Shown here: piece by piece, positions 12,191 to 60,644 of the stretch
How the letters are laid out: the number at the start of each line of letters is the position of its first letter
Position numbering within the stretch: the first letter of the stretch is position 1
Origin: Escherichia phage vB_EcoM_SA21RB
Sequence record: OL960580
Length of the DNA: 64,000 nt
Strand: one strand, 5' to 3'
The notes under the pieces: generated by a model
Seen by the model: only the letters and a program-made list of their open reading frames with translations
What the model was told of the DNA's origin: nothing
The model's database searches: none
Position numbers and translations under genes: made by a program

Positions 12191-12793
12191 TTATAGATTA
12201 AATCCTTCAAAGTCAAGAGTATAGATAGTGTATGTTGAATACTTTTTATACTCGTATCTATCCGCAATTTTAAATACACTTCCAGCCGGTATCATTACTT
12301 CTTGTTCATCTGAAACTAATTCCATATTACGATAGCGATGGCTATCTGAAAACTTAAAACTCGGACTATATTCTTTACAACGTAGAGCTTTTATAGCATA
12401 CTCCTGGAAATTAAACACCATAGGAGCTTTGAATTCAAAAATAACTTGTGTGTTGTATTCTAATCCAGAAGCAAAATGTAGAGCTATATTTTTATCATAT
12501 GAAGCTGATACTACTTTATCAAATGTAATAATATCAATTCCTTGATTTAATACCTGTTTAGTTTCAACTGGAACACCTCTCCAAAGAGGTTTATCGTTTG
12601 AAACCAAACGAGATTTGATTATTTCATTTAACCAAGAATGATCGTCTGGCTTATTAGTAATACAATGAATTAAAAGTTCAATTTCGGATAAATTAAATCC
12701 TTCGGAAAGTAATTCTTCACGAATAGAAGCACGCACCGATGCATCCATTGATTTGATTTTAAAATCTTTTAATTGCATTGCTGAATATTTCAT
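12191..12793 (-). CDS. modA: ADP-ribosyltransferase ModA
   Basis: 200 aa; R (LWRG), S-x-S and QEVMIP elements typical of ARTs; length and position match T4 ModA; modA versus modB assignment rests on length. Confidence 0.7.
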   Translation of the reverse strand: MKYSAMQLKDFKIKSMDASVRASIREELLSEGFNLSEIELLIHCITNKPDDHSWLNEIIKSRLVSNDKPLWRGVPVETKQVLNQGIDIITFDKVVSASYDKNIALHFASGLEYNTQVIFEFKAPMVFNFQEYAIKALRCKEYSPSFKFSDSHRYRNMELVSDEQEVMIPAGSVFKIADRYEYKKYSTYTIYTLDFEGFNL

Positions 12794-13413
12794 TCAACTA
12801 CCTCAATATCATACACTTTAAATGTTCCAAATGAATCGTGCAATTTTTCTTTTGAAATAGAAGTTATTTTATACTTTCCAATTGGAATCATCCATTCTTG
12901 TTCACGTACAATCATCATTAAGTTATCAGTACGTTCTGAATCTAATCCATCAGTATCTTCATATGTATACTTAAACTCAGTATTAGGAGAAGAAAGTATA
13001 ATATCGCTGATATGGTCAGAGTAATTAAAAGCTTTATCAGTTTTTAAGCGAAATATTATTTCAGTGAAATACTCAACATAAGAAAAACCGCATGCTGTGT
13101 GCAAACTAGTAGTAAATGAATCTACTCTGTTCGTTGAAAACACTTCTCCAACTTGTAAATCTTTAATGAGTTCTTTTGTCGATTTTGATATACCACGATA
13201 TAGCTGATAAGGCGATTTAGTTAAATGCTTTTTAACGATTTTATTCAACTGCTGATGAAGGGCTTCATTCTTTTTGGCTTCCATACATTGCCAAAGAACT
13301 GACTGTTCAAAGTCCGTAAATTTTTCACAGACCTTTTTATACATATCATATTGAAAATCGACACTTTCAGCTTTTATAGATAACTGTTCAACATCTGCAA
13401 GATTAATAATCAT
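12790..13413 (-). CDS. modB: ADP-ribosyltransferase ModB
   Basis: 207 aa paralogue of the previous gene (YRG...STN...QEWMIP); stop overlaps the modA start. Confidence 0.7.
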   Translation of the reverse strand: MIINLADVEQLSIKAESVDFQYDMYKKVCEKFTDFEQSVLWQCMEAKKNEALHQQLNKIVKKHLTKSPYQLYRGISKSTKELIKDLQVGEVFSTNRVDSFTTSLHTACGFSYVEYFTEIIFRLKTDKAFNYSDHISDIILSSPNTEFKYTYEDTDGLDSERTDNLMMIVREQEWMIPIGKYKITSISKEKLHDSFGTFKVYDIEVVE

Positions 13414-18271: not shown

Positions 18272-18628
18272 TTAACCTCTATTCATAAAAGCATTAAAAA
18301 TTTGGTCATCAATAGATGGTGCAGTAATATTTTCTGCATCATTTAGCAAATCATTAATTTCATCAGATAGCATAACACATGTACCTTTATTTCCTGTAAT
18401 TGTTACTGCGCAATTACGAACGTTTTCTTTATTAAATTTTAGGTTAATATTTTCGTAATGAAAATCCTTTAATGCTGAATATATTTTTAAAATAAAATTA
18501 TCTTTTACTACAATAAACCCAACCTCACTATTAAAACGTGGTTCATGGAAACTGTAATAAACCTTTTCATCTATAAAATCGTATGAAATTTTTTCCATTT
18601 TTAAATATGAAAATTCAGAACTATACAT
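18272..18628 (-). CDS. hypothetical protein (paralogue of 18630..19262)
   Basis: 118 aa; C-terminus SIDDQIFNAFMNRG shared with the next gene. Confidence 0.5.
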   Translation of the reverse strand: MYSSEFSYLKMEKISYDFIDEKVYYSFHEPRFNSEVGFIVVKDNFILKIYSALKDFHYENINLKFNKENVRNCAVTITGNKGTCVMLSDEINDLLNDAENITAPSIDDQIFNAFMNRG

Positions 18629-18629
18629 A

Positions 18630-19262
18630 TTAACCTTTATTCATAAAAGCATTAAAAATTTGATCGTCAATAGAAACTTTTACTTTAGGCTGTTCTTCAA
18701 ACGGTAATTCATATCCACATATTACAATTTTGTGATCGATACCAAAATACACAGAAGCAATATGATTAATGTTGTTTTCAGTAAAGTCTAAATCAACATC
18801 AATATCTTTTTGACCACAGCCCAAAGGATAAATAATGCGAGTAATTCGATTATCTTTAACAAATATTCCACCGACATACTCTGTGCTGCGTTTAAAGTCT
18901 ACACGCCGACGAAATGAAAAATATTCAGGCTCTCTATGAGCTCGGCTCATAGGACACAACGAGTAACTAGAATAAGAGATGTCAAATCCTACGCCTTCAA
19001 TATGAGCCAACGTGTCATGATTAAACCAATTATAATCATACGCCAAGTCCATTAGATTATAATATGTAAAAGGCACCGGATTAACATCATATATTGTACC
19101 TTTAAAATCTGCCCAGGCAACGATTTCATTATCTTTAACAATTACAAAAATTGTGCCAATAAGATATCCACGGTTATTTTCATCAGGCGTTATATTATAA
19201 CATTGTGCATCAGGAAATTTACCATATTTAAACGGTGGATTTTTGTGCATATAATAAATCAT
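18630..19262 (-). CDS. hypothetical protein (paralogue of 18272..18628)
   Basis: ORF track start is GTG 19271; ATG 19262 with AGGTGA SD gives 210 aa; C-terminus SIDDQIFNAFMNKG. Confidence 0.5.
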   Translation of the reverse strand: MIYYMHKNPPFKYGKFPDAQCYNITPDENNRGYLIGTIFVIVKDNEIVAWADFKGTIYDVNPVPFTYYNLMDLAYDYNWFNHDTLAHIEGVGFDISYSSYSLCPMSRAHREPEYFSFRRRVDFKRSTEYVGGIFVKDNRITRIIYPLGCGQKDIDVDLDFTENNINHIASVYFGIDHKIVICGYELPFEEQPKVKVSIDDQIFNAFMNKG

Positions 19263-56855: not shown

Positions 56856-57068
56856 TCATTTTTGTCCTGTATTTACTTTATGCCGATGCACGGCCTTAAC
56901 TTTATCAAGGTATTTTTCAAAATTTCGCAATCTAGTATAGTCTGCCGGAGATTGGTTGAGTGATACTTCTCGACGCAAAGCTGAAATAACATTTCCAACT
57001 TCCCTACGAATTTCATCTAATTGAAGAACAGTAAGATTGCGAAGTTGCTTTTCAGTTAATTGTAGCAT
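56856..57068 (-). CDS. small hypothetical protein (position of T4 rI.1)
   Basis: 70 aa. Confidence 0.5.
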
Positions 57069-57110
57069 ATATACCCCTTTAGTTAGATAAACCTATTTAT
57101 AACTTTTGCA

Positions 57111-57692
57111 CTAACCGAGCTTTTTAGTTAATTCATTCCAATGTTTTCTACACAAAGAAACATAAATTTCATCACCAATACAGATTTGATTACCTTCTTT
57201 AACTGGTGTTCCATCTTCCATTAATCGAGCTGTCATAATCGCTTTTTTACCACAATGACAAACTGCTTTTAGTTCAATAAGTTTATCTGCAATCGCCAAA
57301 AGTTCTTTAGAACCTTCAAATAATTTTCCAGCGAAATCAGTCCTTAGCCCATAAGCCATAACAGGAACATTATATGTATCAACAATTCGGCTTAATTGAT
57401 GCACTTGTTCAGTTTTTAAAAACTGAGCTTCATCTACAAATACGCAATGAATATCTTTTTGTGCTTCAGCCCATTTATAGAACTCAAAAATATCCATATC
57501 ATCCGTAATAATATTCGCTTCCTGTTTAATTCCAATGCGAGAAACGACTTCACAGACAGAATCGCGAGTATCAATAGCAGGCTTAAGAACTAATACACTC
57601 ATTCCACGTTCTTTATAATTATGTGCAGCAGTCAAAAGAGAAGCAGATTTTCCAGCATTCATTGCTGCATAAGTAAAAATTAAACTCGCCAT
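57111..57692 (-). CDS. tk: thymidine kinase
   Basis: 193 aa; P-loop AMNAGKS and Zn ribbon CHCGKK...C..H. Confidence 0.95.
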   Translation of the reverse strand: MASLIFTYAAMNAGKSASLLTAAHNYKERGMSVLVLKPAIDTRDSVCEVVSRIGIKQEANIITDDMDIFEFYKWAEAQKDIHCVFVDEAQFLKTEQVHQLSRIVDTYNVPVMAYGLRTDFAGKLFEGSKELLAIADKLIELKAVCHCGKKAIMTARLMEDGTPVKEGNQICIGDEIYVSLCRKHWNELTKKLG

Positions 57693-57701
57693 ATCACCTT
57701 C

Positions 57702-57887
57702 TTAAAGCGTATTCACATAAGCTATTAATTCGTTTTCTTTCTTATCAAACCGATCAGCAAATTCTTCTTGCTGTTCGGGAGATAGCGGGCCGTATTCATC
57801 ATAAAAGGTGTTTGCTTCTGTATGCTCATCTAGAAGTTCATGGATAAGCTCAAACAATTTATCTTTTTGTTCTTTACTCAGACTCAT
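57702..57887 (-). CDS. small hypothetical protein
   Basis: 61 aa, acidic. Confidence 0.45.
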   Translation of the reverse strand: MSLSKEQKDKLFELIHELLDEHTEANTFYDEYGPLSPEQQEEFADRFDKKENELIAYVNTL

Positions 57888-58056
57888 ATATTAATTCCAG
57901 GAGTTTTAAAATAATTCGCTTTTGCTTAAATATTTCCATAGTTAAATGACCAGTATCTTTTTGACCGATTCCAATGGCAAAACCTTTATTAACAGCGAGT
58001 TCAATTAAATTATCAAGCTCACGTAACACTTCGTATTGTAACTCAAAACTATTCAT
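57874..58056 (-). CDS. small hypothetical protein
   Basis: 60 aa. Confidence 0.45.
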   Translation of the reverse strand: MNSFELQYEVLRELDNLIELAVNKGFAIGIGQKDTGHLTMEIFKQKRIILKLLELIYESE

Positions 58057-58280
58057 TTTGGTTTACCTTCTTTAACGAAATCAGGATAAGGATAAAATCC
58101 TGAATAAAATCCTTCACCTTTATGATTGATGCATCCTTTATTAGAACAATAGCACCAATAATCGAAATCACAAGTCATTTCATCGTTGCATAAAGCAAAA
58201 ACAACCGGCCACTTACACTTTTCACAGTGGGCATTTTTAAGAATACTAGTTTGGCTCATAACCATGTAACCTTTAAGCAA
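58053..58280 (-). CDS. small Cys-rich protein
   Basis: 75 aa; CEKCKW...CNDEMTC...CYCSNKGC. Confidence 0.45.
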   Translation of the reverse strand: MLKGYMVMSQTSILKNAHCEKCKWPVVFALCNDEMTCDFDYWCYCSNKGCINHKGEGFYSGFYPYPDFVKEGKPK

Positions 58281-58468
58281 TATTCTTCTACATGTTGTTT
58301 ACGACCTTTCTTATCAATAAAGGTATATTCAACGAATGTTCCAATGTAGTCTTTATCTACATCATGTGGACTATTAATTGGACATTTAGTGCGGCAAATG
58401 CGTTCCCATTGACGAATAATTACTGCTTTGTTTTTAGGATCAAACGGATGTGGGTAATGTACTTTCAT
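58256..58468 (-). CDS. small hypothetical protein
   Basis: 70 aa. Confidence 0.45.
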   Translation of the reverse strand: MKVHYPHPFDPKNKAVIIRQWERICRTKCPINSPHDVDKDYIGTFVEYTFIDKKGRKQHVEEYCLKVTWL

Positions 58469-58919
58469 AATCCACCACTATTAAATCAATATCAGGAGTA
58501 AACATGTCGATTAATTTAGAAACCTTATCCCAATCACCGCCAGCAATACCACAACCTATGCGTGGAATGTAAATTACTGGTTTAAACAAAAGGGTTTCTG
58601 CCTGTAGATTTAATTCTATCATGCAGTTTACTAAAGCACCATAATCAAGATTAGGACCTGGTTCGTATTGCGTATACAGGTTATAGCATATACCAAATCC
58701 CGTAGGACTATGTTTAAAAACAATAGACATATCGCCTAATTTATCACGAGAACCGTACTCAGTAGTGGTTTTATCTATTTCTAAAATTTTGGGATAGGCT
58801 CTTGCTAATTGACCCGCTACGCCTGAACCCATAGTATGAAAACAATTGCACCCGTGCGCAATAATATTACCTTGAAGAAATAGGGCGACAATATCGCCCT
58901 TGATATATTTTACAATCAT
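58440..58919 (-). CDS. macro-domain-like protein
   Basis: 159 aa; GDIV...HGCNCFHTMGSGVAGQL and IPRIGCGIAGGDW resemble the two glycine-rich loops of macro domains. Confidence 0.55.
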   Translation of the reverse strand: MIVKYIKGDIVALFLQGNIIAHGCNCFHTMGSGVAGQLARAYPKILEIDKTTTEYGSRDKLGDMSIVFKHSPTGFGICYNLYTQYEPGPNLDYGALVNCMIELNLQAETLLFKPVIYIPRIGCGIAGGDWDKVSKLIDMFTPDIDLIVVDYESTLPTSV

Positions 58920-59257
58920 CTAGTACTCAATCCTCGATTATAAGAATCTACCAAACGGTCAACCATTGAATGACAAGCGGCTTTATCTTTTTCCTCCGCA
59001 ACTGAACATTCTAGGGTATTCCACTTTTTAGCATATCGTTTTAACAATGTATCATTTTTGTATCTGCTTGATTTATCTCTTTCTCCGTCTTTATATGCAT
59101 ATATTAATTTCTGTGCAAATTCAGCTTGGCATGCTTTATTTTTCCCGCAATAATCCGCTGCAGTACGGTTTACATACTCTCTAATTTCAGTATATGATGT
59201 ATCTGCTAACGCAGAAAATGAAATTAATCCTATACATAAAACCAAAATTTTAGTCAT
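58916..59257 (-). CDS. secreted small protein
   Basis: 113 aa; signal peptide MTKILVLCIGLISFSALA; four Cys. Confidence 0.55.
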   Translation of the reverse strand: MTKILVLCIGLISFSALADTSYTEIREYVNRTAADYCGKNKACQAEFAQKLIYAYKDGERDKSSRYKNDTLLKRYAKKWNTLECSVAEEKDKAACHSMVDRLVDSYNRGLSTR

Positions 59258-59795
59258 TTACTATTTCCAAAAGTTTATTATTTTTAAGGTAATTAGCCTT
59301 TTCTAGGACTTCAGAAGCATATTTAGAACCTGCTTTAACATTCCATCCCGAATTATAAGAGGATATTGCTTTTCTTATATCGCCCTTATGTATATTTAAC
59401 CAATAAGAAAGTTCAATGTACGCCCAGGAAGCTGAATTGGATCGTTTATTCAACATTCTTTTTATTTCAGCATCGGTCATATTATAACCAAGTTCCTTAA
59501 CTCTTGCTCGCATAGTAGGCAAATAATTTTGGAACATTCCATAAGCGTGATGCTTTGGTTTAGATTTTAAATTAACTCCGCCAGAGCTTTCTTGCCATAA
59601 AATAGCAGCCATTATATGACCTAATCCGCTCTTGTGGATATTTTTGTGTGTTTTATATTTTCCATCCTTAGAAAATTGTTCCCCGAATTGATACGCGTAA
59701 CGCATGTTATCGAGTTGGACATTACTGAAAGTATGCTCGGAGCTATGTGCCATCATTGAAATGGCCAATAGACCAGCGAGTAGTGCTTTTCTCAT
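59250..59795 (-). CDS. secreted lytic-transglycosylase-like protein
   Basis: 181 aa; signal peptide; LWQESSGG followed by Y..GMFQ, SLT-like. Confidence 0.5.
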   Translation of the reverse strand: MRKALLAGLLAISMMAHSSEHTFSNVQLDNMRYAYQFGEQFSKDGKYKTHKNIHKSGLGHIMAAILWQESSGGVNLKSKPKHHAYGMFQNYLPTMRARVKELGYNMTDAEIKRMLNKRSNSASWAYIELSYWLNIHKGDIRKAISSYNSGWNVKAGSKYASEVLEKANYLKNNKLLEIVND

Positions 59796-59802
59796 GCTTA
59801 CC

Positions 59803-60264
59803 TCATTGAGTTTTAATTACTGCTTTAGAAGCCTTTCCTGGTAAACGACGACTGTTAATAATTGCCATCCTGCATTGAAGCGACGGGTCTTTGAACTTCG
59901 CATTAGGTTTACAAACTGTAAATCCAAGCCAAAGATTTCCATCTGTGATTTCTAAACGTCCAGGACGATATTCAACCCCATCAATAAAATCCTCGTCAAT
60001 GTCAGGACGAGGAGGCATACTCAGGAATTCATTAACTTCTAAAACATGGTCTTTTATTTTATGGAATAATTCAAAAACGTATGTCTCATCAATCTCCCGT
60101 TGAATTGCACGATCAAGAAGATGTTGAGAATATTTTAGATGAAACGATGAGACCCCTGCTGCTTTTGATGCCTCACGAATCTCATTGTTAATTTGACGAA
60201 ACTCCGACTCAAAGTGACGACGAAGCTTATTTCGACGGATAAAAACTTCTGTGTTGATAGTCAT
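59803..60264 (-). CDS. regB: RegB endoribonuclease
   Basis: 153 aa MTINTEVFIRRNKLRRHFESEF...; length and neighbourhood as in T4. Confidence 0.85.
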   Translation of the reverse strand: MTINTEVFIRRNKLRRHFESEFRQINNEIREASKAAGVSSFHLKYSQHLLDRAIQREIDETYVFELFHKIKDHVLEVNEFLSMPPRPDIDEDFIDGVEYRPGRLEITDGNLWLGFTVCKPNAKFKDPSLQCRMAIINSRRLPGKASKAVIKTQ

Positions 60265-60291
60265 GTTATTCTCCTCTTAACTGATAGAAAA

Positions 60292-60321
60292 ATTATACCA
60301 CAGTCAAGAGGAAAAGTAAAC
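60292..60321 (-). promoter_or_regulatory. T4-type early promoter for regB
   Basis: minus strand GTTTAC, 18 nt, TATAAT directly upstream of the regB SD and ATG. Confidence 0.5.
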
Positions 60322-60323
60322 AG

Positions 60324-60644
60324 TTATTCTTTAAATCTAATCAATTTATTCATAGACTTTGAAACTTCTGCACGAACCTCATGTAGATTTTTGAGCTGTT
60401 CAAGGCGCTGCGTATAGTAAGCAATTTCATCTTCTTCGAGACAGTCCTGTGAATCTTCTTTAAGATAACGTGCATAGTCCTGGAAAGCGTTACGGATTAC
60501 TTCCTGGAAATCATCAAGACTTTGAATTTTCTTAGGAGCAGCAGATACACGACGAGGGGCAGTATAATACTCATAACCAAACCCTGCACTTAATTGAGCC
60601 ATTAATATTTTTCCTCTGGTTGGAACATTGCACGACAAGCCCAC
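60324..60644 (-). CDS. hypothetical protein
   Basis: 106 aa. Confidence 0.5.

Follow-up and report, generated by a model that had tools for sequence, protein, structure and literature searches.

Organization and identity of the locus

The window analyzed here, a stretch of 64,000 nucleotides from Escherichia phage vB_EcoM_SA21RB (sequence record OL960580), covers the beginning of a T4-like Tequatrovirus genome. Its first 25 kb begin with rIIA, as do T4-type genomes, and positions 57000-60500 share 98.5% identity with many T4-like phages of Escherichia and Shigella. The gene in the focus of this analysis was defined from the ORF list and its translation. It lies on the minus strand at 58440..58919 and encodes a stand-alone protein of 159 amino acids. 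Its upstream neighbor is vs (58916..59257), behind which vs.1 (59250..59795) and regB (59803..60264) are located, while its 3' end adjoins tk.3 (58256..58468). Three small ORFs separate tk.3 from tk (57111..57692). The same order of tk, small ORFs, tk.3, macrodomain gene, vs, vs.1 and regB was found in T4 and T6, and the gene occupying the slot between tk.3 and vs in both phages is tk.4. The macrodomain gene shares an ATGA with vs, its ATG overlapping the vs stop codon. At the other end, its last 29 nt run out of frame into the start of tk.3, where T4 has an ATGA overlap. Compared to T4, vs carries a 6-nt deletion at 59170..59223 in the part encoding a signal-peptide-like N-terminus, resulting in 113 instead of 115 amino acids.

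Comparing the proteins, 58% amino acid identity was observed to T4 Tk.4 (NP_049723; 155 residues, gapless, E 1e-70) and 57% to T6 Tk.4. The protein matched PHROG 335 with an E-value of 1e-71, the same PHROG to which T4 Tk.4 belongs, and a 100% identical protein is present among the GenBank phage records. Judged by sequence and gene order, the gene is orthologous and syntenic to T4 tk.4, which was recently named adfM, and represents a divergent allele of it. This identity with an annotated T4 gene was not recognized in the initial annotation of the window, which had been made from the sequence alone. The A1pp/macro motif of T4 tk.4 has been on the annotation record for about 20 years: The T4 RefSeq record labels tk.4 as “phosphatase; contains A1pp phosphatase motif”, and the A1pp domain of tk.4 orthologs was noted in a comparative investigation as early as 2006 (PMC1524935). 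Gene, domain and likely role had all been described before this analysis.

Potential regulatory elements were inspected as well. A scan for sigma-70 promoters yielded 21 sites versus 20.9 expected, and no promoter claim was drawn from it. A motif resembling the MotA box of middle promoters (TGCTTTA, 12 nt, TAGAAT) is located inside tk.4 at 58613..58638 on the minus strand, directed toward tk.3 and tk. T4 reads CGCTTTA...TAGAAT at this site, and the pattern was found enriched in the window with 18 matches versus 5 expected. Furthermore, codons 7-13 of tk.4 contain an inverted repeat (58882..58900) with a perfect 7-bp stem (AGGGCGA/TCGCCCT) and a 5-nt loop, the 6-bp core of which (GGGCGA/TCGCCC) is conserved in T4. 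It could form an mRNA hairpin affecting translation, or could be due to chance.

A divergent allele between conserved flanks

A pairwise DNA alignment combined with sliding identity to T4 delimited an allele-specific segment of about 340 nt in the distal part of the gene (58468..58810, minus strand). In 60-nt windows, identity to T4 amounted to 40-65% from 58810 to 58468, i.e., after the first glycine loop, versus 97-100% over tk, the 5' part of tk.3, most of vs, vs.1 and regB. Accordingly, the protein was found 89% identical to T4 Tk.4 over residues 1-38 and about 48% identical beyond. Given the low-identity segment inside these highly conserved flanks, the sequence looks like the result of a recombinational allele replacement. 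At 40-65% nucleotide identity, synonymous sites are saturated between the two tk.4 alleles. Using megablast with the divergent segment and a cutoff of at least 90% identity, about 300 phage records were found to carry the allele of the window, and the T4 segment retrieved about 225 phage records, including T4, T2 and T6. The commonest tk.4 allele among the sequenced tequatroviruses is consequently not the one tested in T4.

Differences are also found in two short stretches of the protein. The second glycine-rich loop of the window allele (IGCGIAGGDW) equals the family consensus, whereas T4 carries IGAGIGKGNW and the T4 clade IG[AST]GIG[GNK]GNW. Close to the end of the gene (58440..58468) a 13-nt indel versus T4 changes the C-terminus to YESTLPTSV, compared to WEPLL in T4. 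The C-terminus of the window protein is 4 residues longer than that of T4, and this tail is predicted to be disordered.

A second mosaic island was observed at 57698..58290, directly downstream of tk.3, with 22-68% identity to T4 in 60-nt windows between flanks of 95-100%. Its ORFs encode 61, 60 and 75 amino acids and belong to PHROGs 653, 3452 and 2306, all families of unknown function. The Cys-rich 75-amino acid ORF (58053..58280) has no T4 counterpart, and T6 carries RB32ORF110c/111c in this slot. With such an island in the direct neighborhood, mosaicism alone may explain the dimorphism of tk.4.

Predicted macro fold and assignment to the TARG1/ALC1-like class

The initial annotation had proposed a macrodomain-like protein on the basis of two glycine-rich loops, and this call was borne out by profile searches, PDB matches, the predicted fold and structure comparison. 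The Pfam profile Macro (PF01661) matched with 32 bits versus a cut-off of 22 (E 1.3e-7) over profile positions 2-117 of 118. Searching the PDB by sequence yielded BT1257, TARG1, SCO6735, Poa1p and DarG, reaching an E-value of 4e-10 with the single sequence as query and ranging from 9e-19 to 5e-10 for these proteins with a 96-member family profile. When the C-terminal 105 residues were used as query, the PDB search produced a short local match to SCO6735, with Gln84 lying outside of it.

Structure prediction, which had been suggested as a check, also returned a macro fold. The AlphaFold2 model, built on 95 homologs with the T4 sequence not among the alignment rows, reached a pLDDT of 94.2 and a pTM of 0.89, with disorder confined to the last residues. 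The 159-amino acid protein is predicted to adopt the alpha/beta macro fold with two glycine-rich loops for ADP-ribose binding. Comparing the model with known structures by Foldseek, a probability of 1.0 and TM values of 0.7-0.8 were obtained for TARG1, Poa1p, BT1257 and DarG, with 0.72-0.83 for TARG1 and Poa1p. In sequence and structure the protein was nearer to TARG1, DarG, SCO6735 and Poa1p than to MacroD, PARG, macroH2A and viral Mac1. Taken together, the profile, the PDB matches, the model and the Foldseek results assign the protein, at the level of sequence and predicted structure, to the macrodomains of the TARG1/ALC1-like class.

Predicted active site

Both loops named in the initial annotation are present and align with macrodomain loops. 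Loop 1 (HTMGSGVAGQL, residues 28-38, 58806..58838, minus strand), the first predicted ADP-ribose-binding loop, aligns with “RMGAGIA” of TARG1, “VMGKGVA” of DarG and “GWGKGFV” of SCO6735. Loop 2 (IGCGIAGGDW, residues 121-130, 58530..58559, minus strand) is predicted to bind the diphosphate. Upstream of loop 1, an H22-G23-C24-N25 motif (58845..58856, minus strand) was placed by hhalign against SCO6735/BT1257 and against a DarG set consisting of the Taq, Mtb and Thermosipho proteins and PhiKZ gp104. The Gln84 codon (58668..58670, minus strand) was located by the hmmsearch alignment to TARG1 and by hhalign to SCO6735 and DarG. Among 95 homologs, which were 38-96% identical, H22, G23, N25, C26, G33, A35, D49, N80 and Y82 were invariant, as were Q84, P119, G122, G124 and W130.

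Aligning the family profile to TARG1 with hmmsearch, Q84 was found at the position of Lys84 and A126 at that of Asp125. The hhalign comparison with SCO6735/BT1257 (probability 99%, E 2.6e-18) paired H22 with His24, G23 with Val25, N25 with Asn27, Q84 with Gln85 and G124 with Gly128 of SCO6735. H22 corresponds to His23 of Poa1p as well. Against the DarG set (probability 98.7%), Q84 fell on Lys80 of Taq DarG and N25 on Asn23 of PhiKZ. The window protein therefore lacks the lysine used catalytically by DarG and TARG1 and has Gln84 at the aligned position. Two other alignment strategies were abandoned. A single-sequence hhalign to PhiKZ had put Gln84 two residues off the lysine of the FPTK motif and was replaced by the four-member DarG set. 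Pairwise BLASTP to PhiKZ gp104 and SCO6735 gave fragmentary or misaligned central regions, and profile-profile alignments were used instead.

Despite having no catalytic lysine, SCO6735 removes thymidine-linked ADP-ribose from DNA (PMC9411070). Its Q85A, N27S and G128E mutants lose activity, Q85A being inactive, and a water-mediated mechanism was proposed (PMC9411070). Mutation of Asn23 in PhiKZ AdfM lowers the activity (PMC13309987). As Q84, N25 and G124 match active-site residues of SCO6735, the alignments indicate that the Tk.4 family carries a Gln-type active site like SCO6735 and not the Lys-type site of DarG. Two features of SCO6735 are missing: Lys34 aligns with Ser32 in the window protein (Ala in most homologs), and hhalign showed the 5-residue insertion carrying Lys89 to be absent from the Tk.4-type protein. 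Since both the DNA-contacting Lys34 and the Lys89 loop are lacking, use of a DNA substrate is not guaranteed.

Distribution of Tk.4-like proteins and of ModA/ModB

The initial annotation had pointed to two ADP-ribosyltransferases, ModA and ModB, encoded in the same genome at 12191..13413. Both were confirmed by PHROG 832 and by direct comparison with T4: ModA (12191..12793) and ModB (12790..13413) are each 96% identical to the respective T4 protein. The Pfam search recognized neither of them. Tk.4-like proteins were found in 2,788 out of 50,697 phage records, including Pseudomonas, Vibrio, Acinetobacter, Aeromonas and Bacillus phages. ModB-like ADP-ribosyltransferases, on the other hand, occurred in 1,010 phage records, almost all of them T4-like phages of Enterobacterales hosts. 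As Tk.4-like proteins are spread over many genera and the ModB-like proteins are confined, the macrodomain gene is not tied to ModA/ModB. No link between ModA/ModB and the macrodomain gene was found, and a functional link was rejected on grounds of distribution and clade. The suggestion that the protein tunes the phage's own ADP-ribosyltransferases thus found no support.

A 40%-identical homolog is encoded as a stand-alone gene on the chromosome of Pelagimonas phthalicica (L005, 6001..6459). Its neighbors are devoid of toxin-like and phage-like Pfam domains. In this respect it is closer to SCO6735, which likewise stands alone, than to a DarTG operon.

Proposed function in counter-defense against DarTG2

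Phage DNA is the target of ADP-ribosylation by DarTG systems, both types of which T-even phages withstand. Resistance to DarTG1 is accounted for by AdfA and AdfN, and the factor directed against DarTG2 has recently been identified as Tk.4/AdfM. Resistance of T-even phages to DarTG2 had been found before to be independent of AdfA and AdfN (PMC11257639). A T4 transposon library propagated on Escherichia coli expressing DarTG2 gave tk.4 as single significant hit, a clean tk.4 deletion sensitized T4 to DarTG2, and the gene was renamed adfM for anti-DarT factor Macrodomain (bioRxiv 10.1101/2025.11.20.689424). The proposal of the initial annotation that the protein acts against an ADP-ribosylating host defense agrees with these published genetics of the T4 ortholog. 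The DarTG2 phenotype was established for the T4 allele only, by genetics, in a preprint. For PhiKZ gp104, which is also called AdfM, removal of DarT2 marks was demonstrated in vitro (PMC13309987). As gp104 is DarG-like and barely alignable to Tk.4, this biochemical evidence comes from relatives and not from a Tk.4-type protein. We found no other paper mentioning both Tk.4 and ADP-ribose.

The window also contains an ortholog of T4 gene 61.2 (AdfA) at 18633..19262 on the minus strand with 77% identity, and a weak second match to gene 61.2 (34%) just downstream of it at 18275..18568. AdfA is an anti-DarTG1 factor (PMC11257639). Together with tk.4, the 61.2 ortholog brings the candidate DarTG counter-defense genes within the window to at least two.

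From sequence and from analogy to these systems, we propose with a probability of roughly 60% that the gene encodes a counter-defense macrodomain hydrolase, which strips DarT2-installed ADP-ribose from thymidines of single-stranded phage DNA via Asn25 and Gln84. Once the DarT2 toxin is released in an infected cell, it modifies single-stranded phage DNA with ADP-ribose at the N3 position of thymidines, and replication is blocked. This ADP-ribose would be bound by both glycine-rich loops of the phage macrodomain, with Gln84, held by Asn25, positioning the distal ribose. The bond between ribose and thymine might then be hydrolyzed in a lysine-independent, water-mediated reaction, as proposed for SCO6735, leaving free ADP-ribose and a restored base. 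By analogy to T4, the window allele most likely acts like T4 tk.4 against DarTG2, and would do so by hydrolysis. We read Tk.4/AdfM as an “orphan antitoxin” type of counter-defense. Several observations weigh against a hydrolase of DarT2 marks: Past residue 38 the identity to T4 Tk.4 is only about 48% and the T4 evidence is purely genetic, both the catalytic Lys of DarG/TARG1 and the DNA-contacting lysines of SCO6735 are missing, and the N-terminal half also resembles Poa1p, an ADP-ribose-1''-phosphate phosphatase.

The divergence of the allele raises the question of the target. An enzyme of the same class could act on a different or broader target, such as the marks of other DarT-like or nucleic-acid ADP-ribosylating toxins, e.g., uracil-linked ADP-ribose on RNA or the marks of different DarT2 variants, instead of those set by the E. 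coli DarTG2 used with T4. The distal two-thirds of the gene, 40-65% identical to T4 within flanks of 97-100%, the differing loop 2 (IGCGIAGGDW versus IGAGIGKGNW) and the commonness of both alleles would fit such a shift, as would the ability of both SCO6735 and TARG1 to cleave ADP-ribose off uracil in RNA as well (PMC13036486). However, all invariant active-site residues are common to both tk.4 alleles, and in mosaic T4-like genomes with an unrelated divergent island adjoining, the dimorphism may be no more than a trace of past recombination, which is why we regard a changed target as unlikely. The same low weight is given to the related idea that an arms race keeps the two diverged alleles, each with a different specificity either for DarT2 variants or for the nucleic acid mark (e.g., thymine in DNA versus uracil in RNA), with both acting by lysine-independent catalysis. 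To our knowledge, such a lysine-independent catalytic mechanism has been demonstrated for no phage enzyme.

In line with the historical “A1pp phosphatase” annotation, the protein could instead be an enzyme for small molecules, i.e., an ADP-ribose-1''-phosphate phosphatase, an O-acetyl-ADP-ribose deacetylase or a degrader of immune signals derived from ADP-ribose, not of DNA marks. This was considered rather improbable, as the T4 ortholog shows a specific DarTG2 phenotype and the closest full-length relatives are BT1257 and SCO6735, members of a lineage with demonstrated activity on DNA marks. Moreover, we know of no source of ADP-ribose-1''-phosphate in T4 infection. The presence of ModA and ModB in the same genome would, in principle, be compatible with an eraser or reader of the phage's own Alt, ModA or ModB marks on RNA polymerase, ribosomal protein S1 or other host proteins, and arginine-specific macrodomains do exist, for example MavL of Legionella (cited in PMC13036486). 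Nevertheless, the gene is located about 45 kb from modA/modB, the substrates of the TARG1/DarG/SCO6735 clade are Glu/Asp esters, phosphate ends and N3 of thymine or uracil, but not arginine, T4 tk.4 was a hit only with DarTG2 present, and the 2,788 records with Tk.4-like macrodomains contrast with 1,010 for ModB-like enzymes, rendering this role very unlikely. Hardly any weight was given to a non-catalytic inhibitor, which would neutralize DarT2 chiefly through binding to the toxin or shielding of the toxin's product. The Q85A mutant of SCO6735, although devoid of catalysis, does inhibit DarT in vitro, and more strongly than inactive DarG or TARG1 (PMC9411070). On the other hand, H22, N25, Q84 and the glycine loops are strictly conserved in 95 diverse homologs, as expected for an enzyme, and the C-terminal DarT-binding domain of DarG is missing, the NCBIfam match being limited to positions 2-142 of 338.

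Comparison with known systems

The system found in the window is not of a new kind, and the points made here are incremental. What remains of interest is the common window-type allele together with the lysine-independent active site. The closest known counterpart, T4 Tk.4, occupies the same slot, falls into the same length class and shares the invariant motifs AHGCNCFHTMGSGVAGQL, NLYTQ and PRIG-G-...-W with the window protein. SCO6735 (PDB 5e3b) and BT1257 (2afc/2fg1) are likewise stand-alone macrodomains of the TARG1/ALC1-like class with a Gln at the catalytic position. They are, however, cellular and not phage proteins, share about 25% sequence identity with Tk.4, and SCO6735 helps to hold the DNA with Lys34 and with Lys89 in its 5-residue insertion, both of which are missing in Tk.4. 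Human TARG1/OARD1 (PDB 4j5r) belongs to the same macrodomain class and also removes thymidine-linked ADP-ribose, but its catalytic dyad Lys84/Asp125 corresponds to Gln84/Ala126 in the window protein. Yeast Poa1p (PDB 6lfq) shares the fold class and the H-x-C-N-C motif, but is a small-molecule phosphatase.

The DarG macrodomain of DarTG2 (PDB 5m3i, 5m31, 7omu) carries Lys80 (numbering of Thermus aquaticus DarG) where Tk.4 has Gln84. DarG furthermore possesses a C-terminal DarT-binding domain and is encoded beside DarT, whereas the neighbors of Tk.4 are vs and tk.3. Correspondingly, Tk.4 scored 27.7 bits versus a cut-off of 250 with the DarG equivalog model NF048014, covering positions 2-142 of 338, and the match to the PADLOC DarG model was limited to positions 3-144 of 329. 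PhiKZ gp104 is, like Tk.4, a stand-alone phage macrodomain countering DarTG2, and its Asn23, the equivalent of N25, is needed for full activity. Unlike Tk.4, it is DarG-like with an FPTK lysine motif, is barely alignable to Tk.4 by BLASTP, and is imported into the phage nucleus. The name AdfM therefore currently covers two unrelated macrodomain lineages, which were acquired independently, and as it stands both for the Gln-type T4 Tk.4 and the Lys-type PhiKZ gp104, transfer of annotation between them would be misleading. The allele, the Gln-type site and the AdfM naming bear on the choice of the protein to be purified and of the residues to be mutated, and equally on the prediction of DarTG2 sensitivity of therapeutic T4-like phages.
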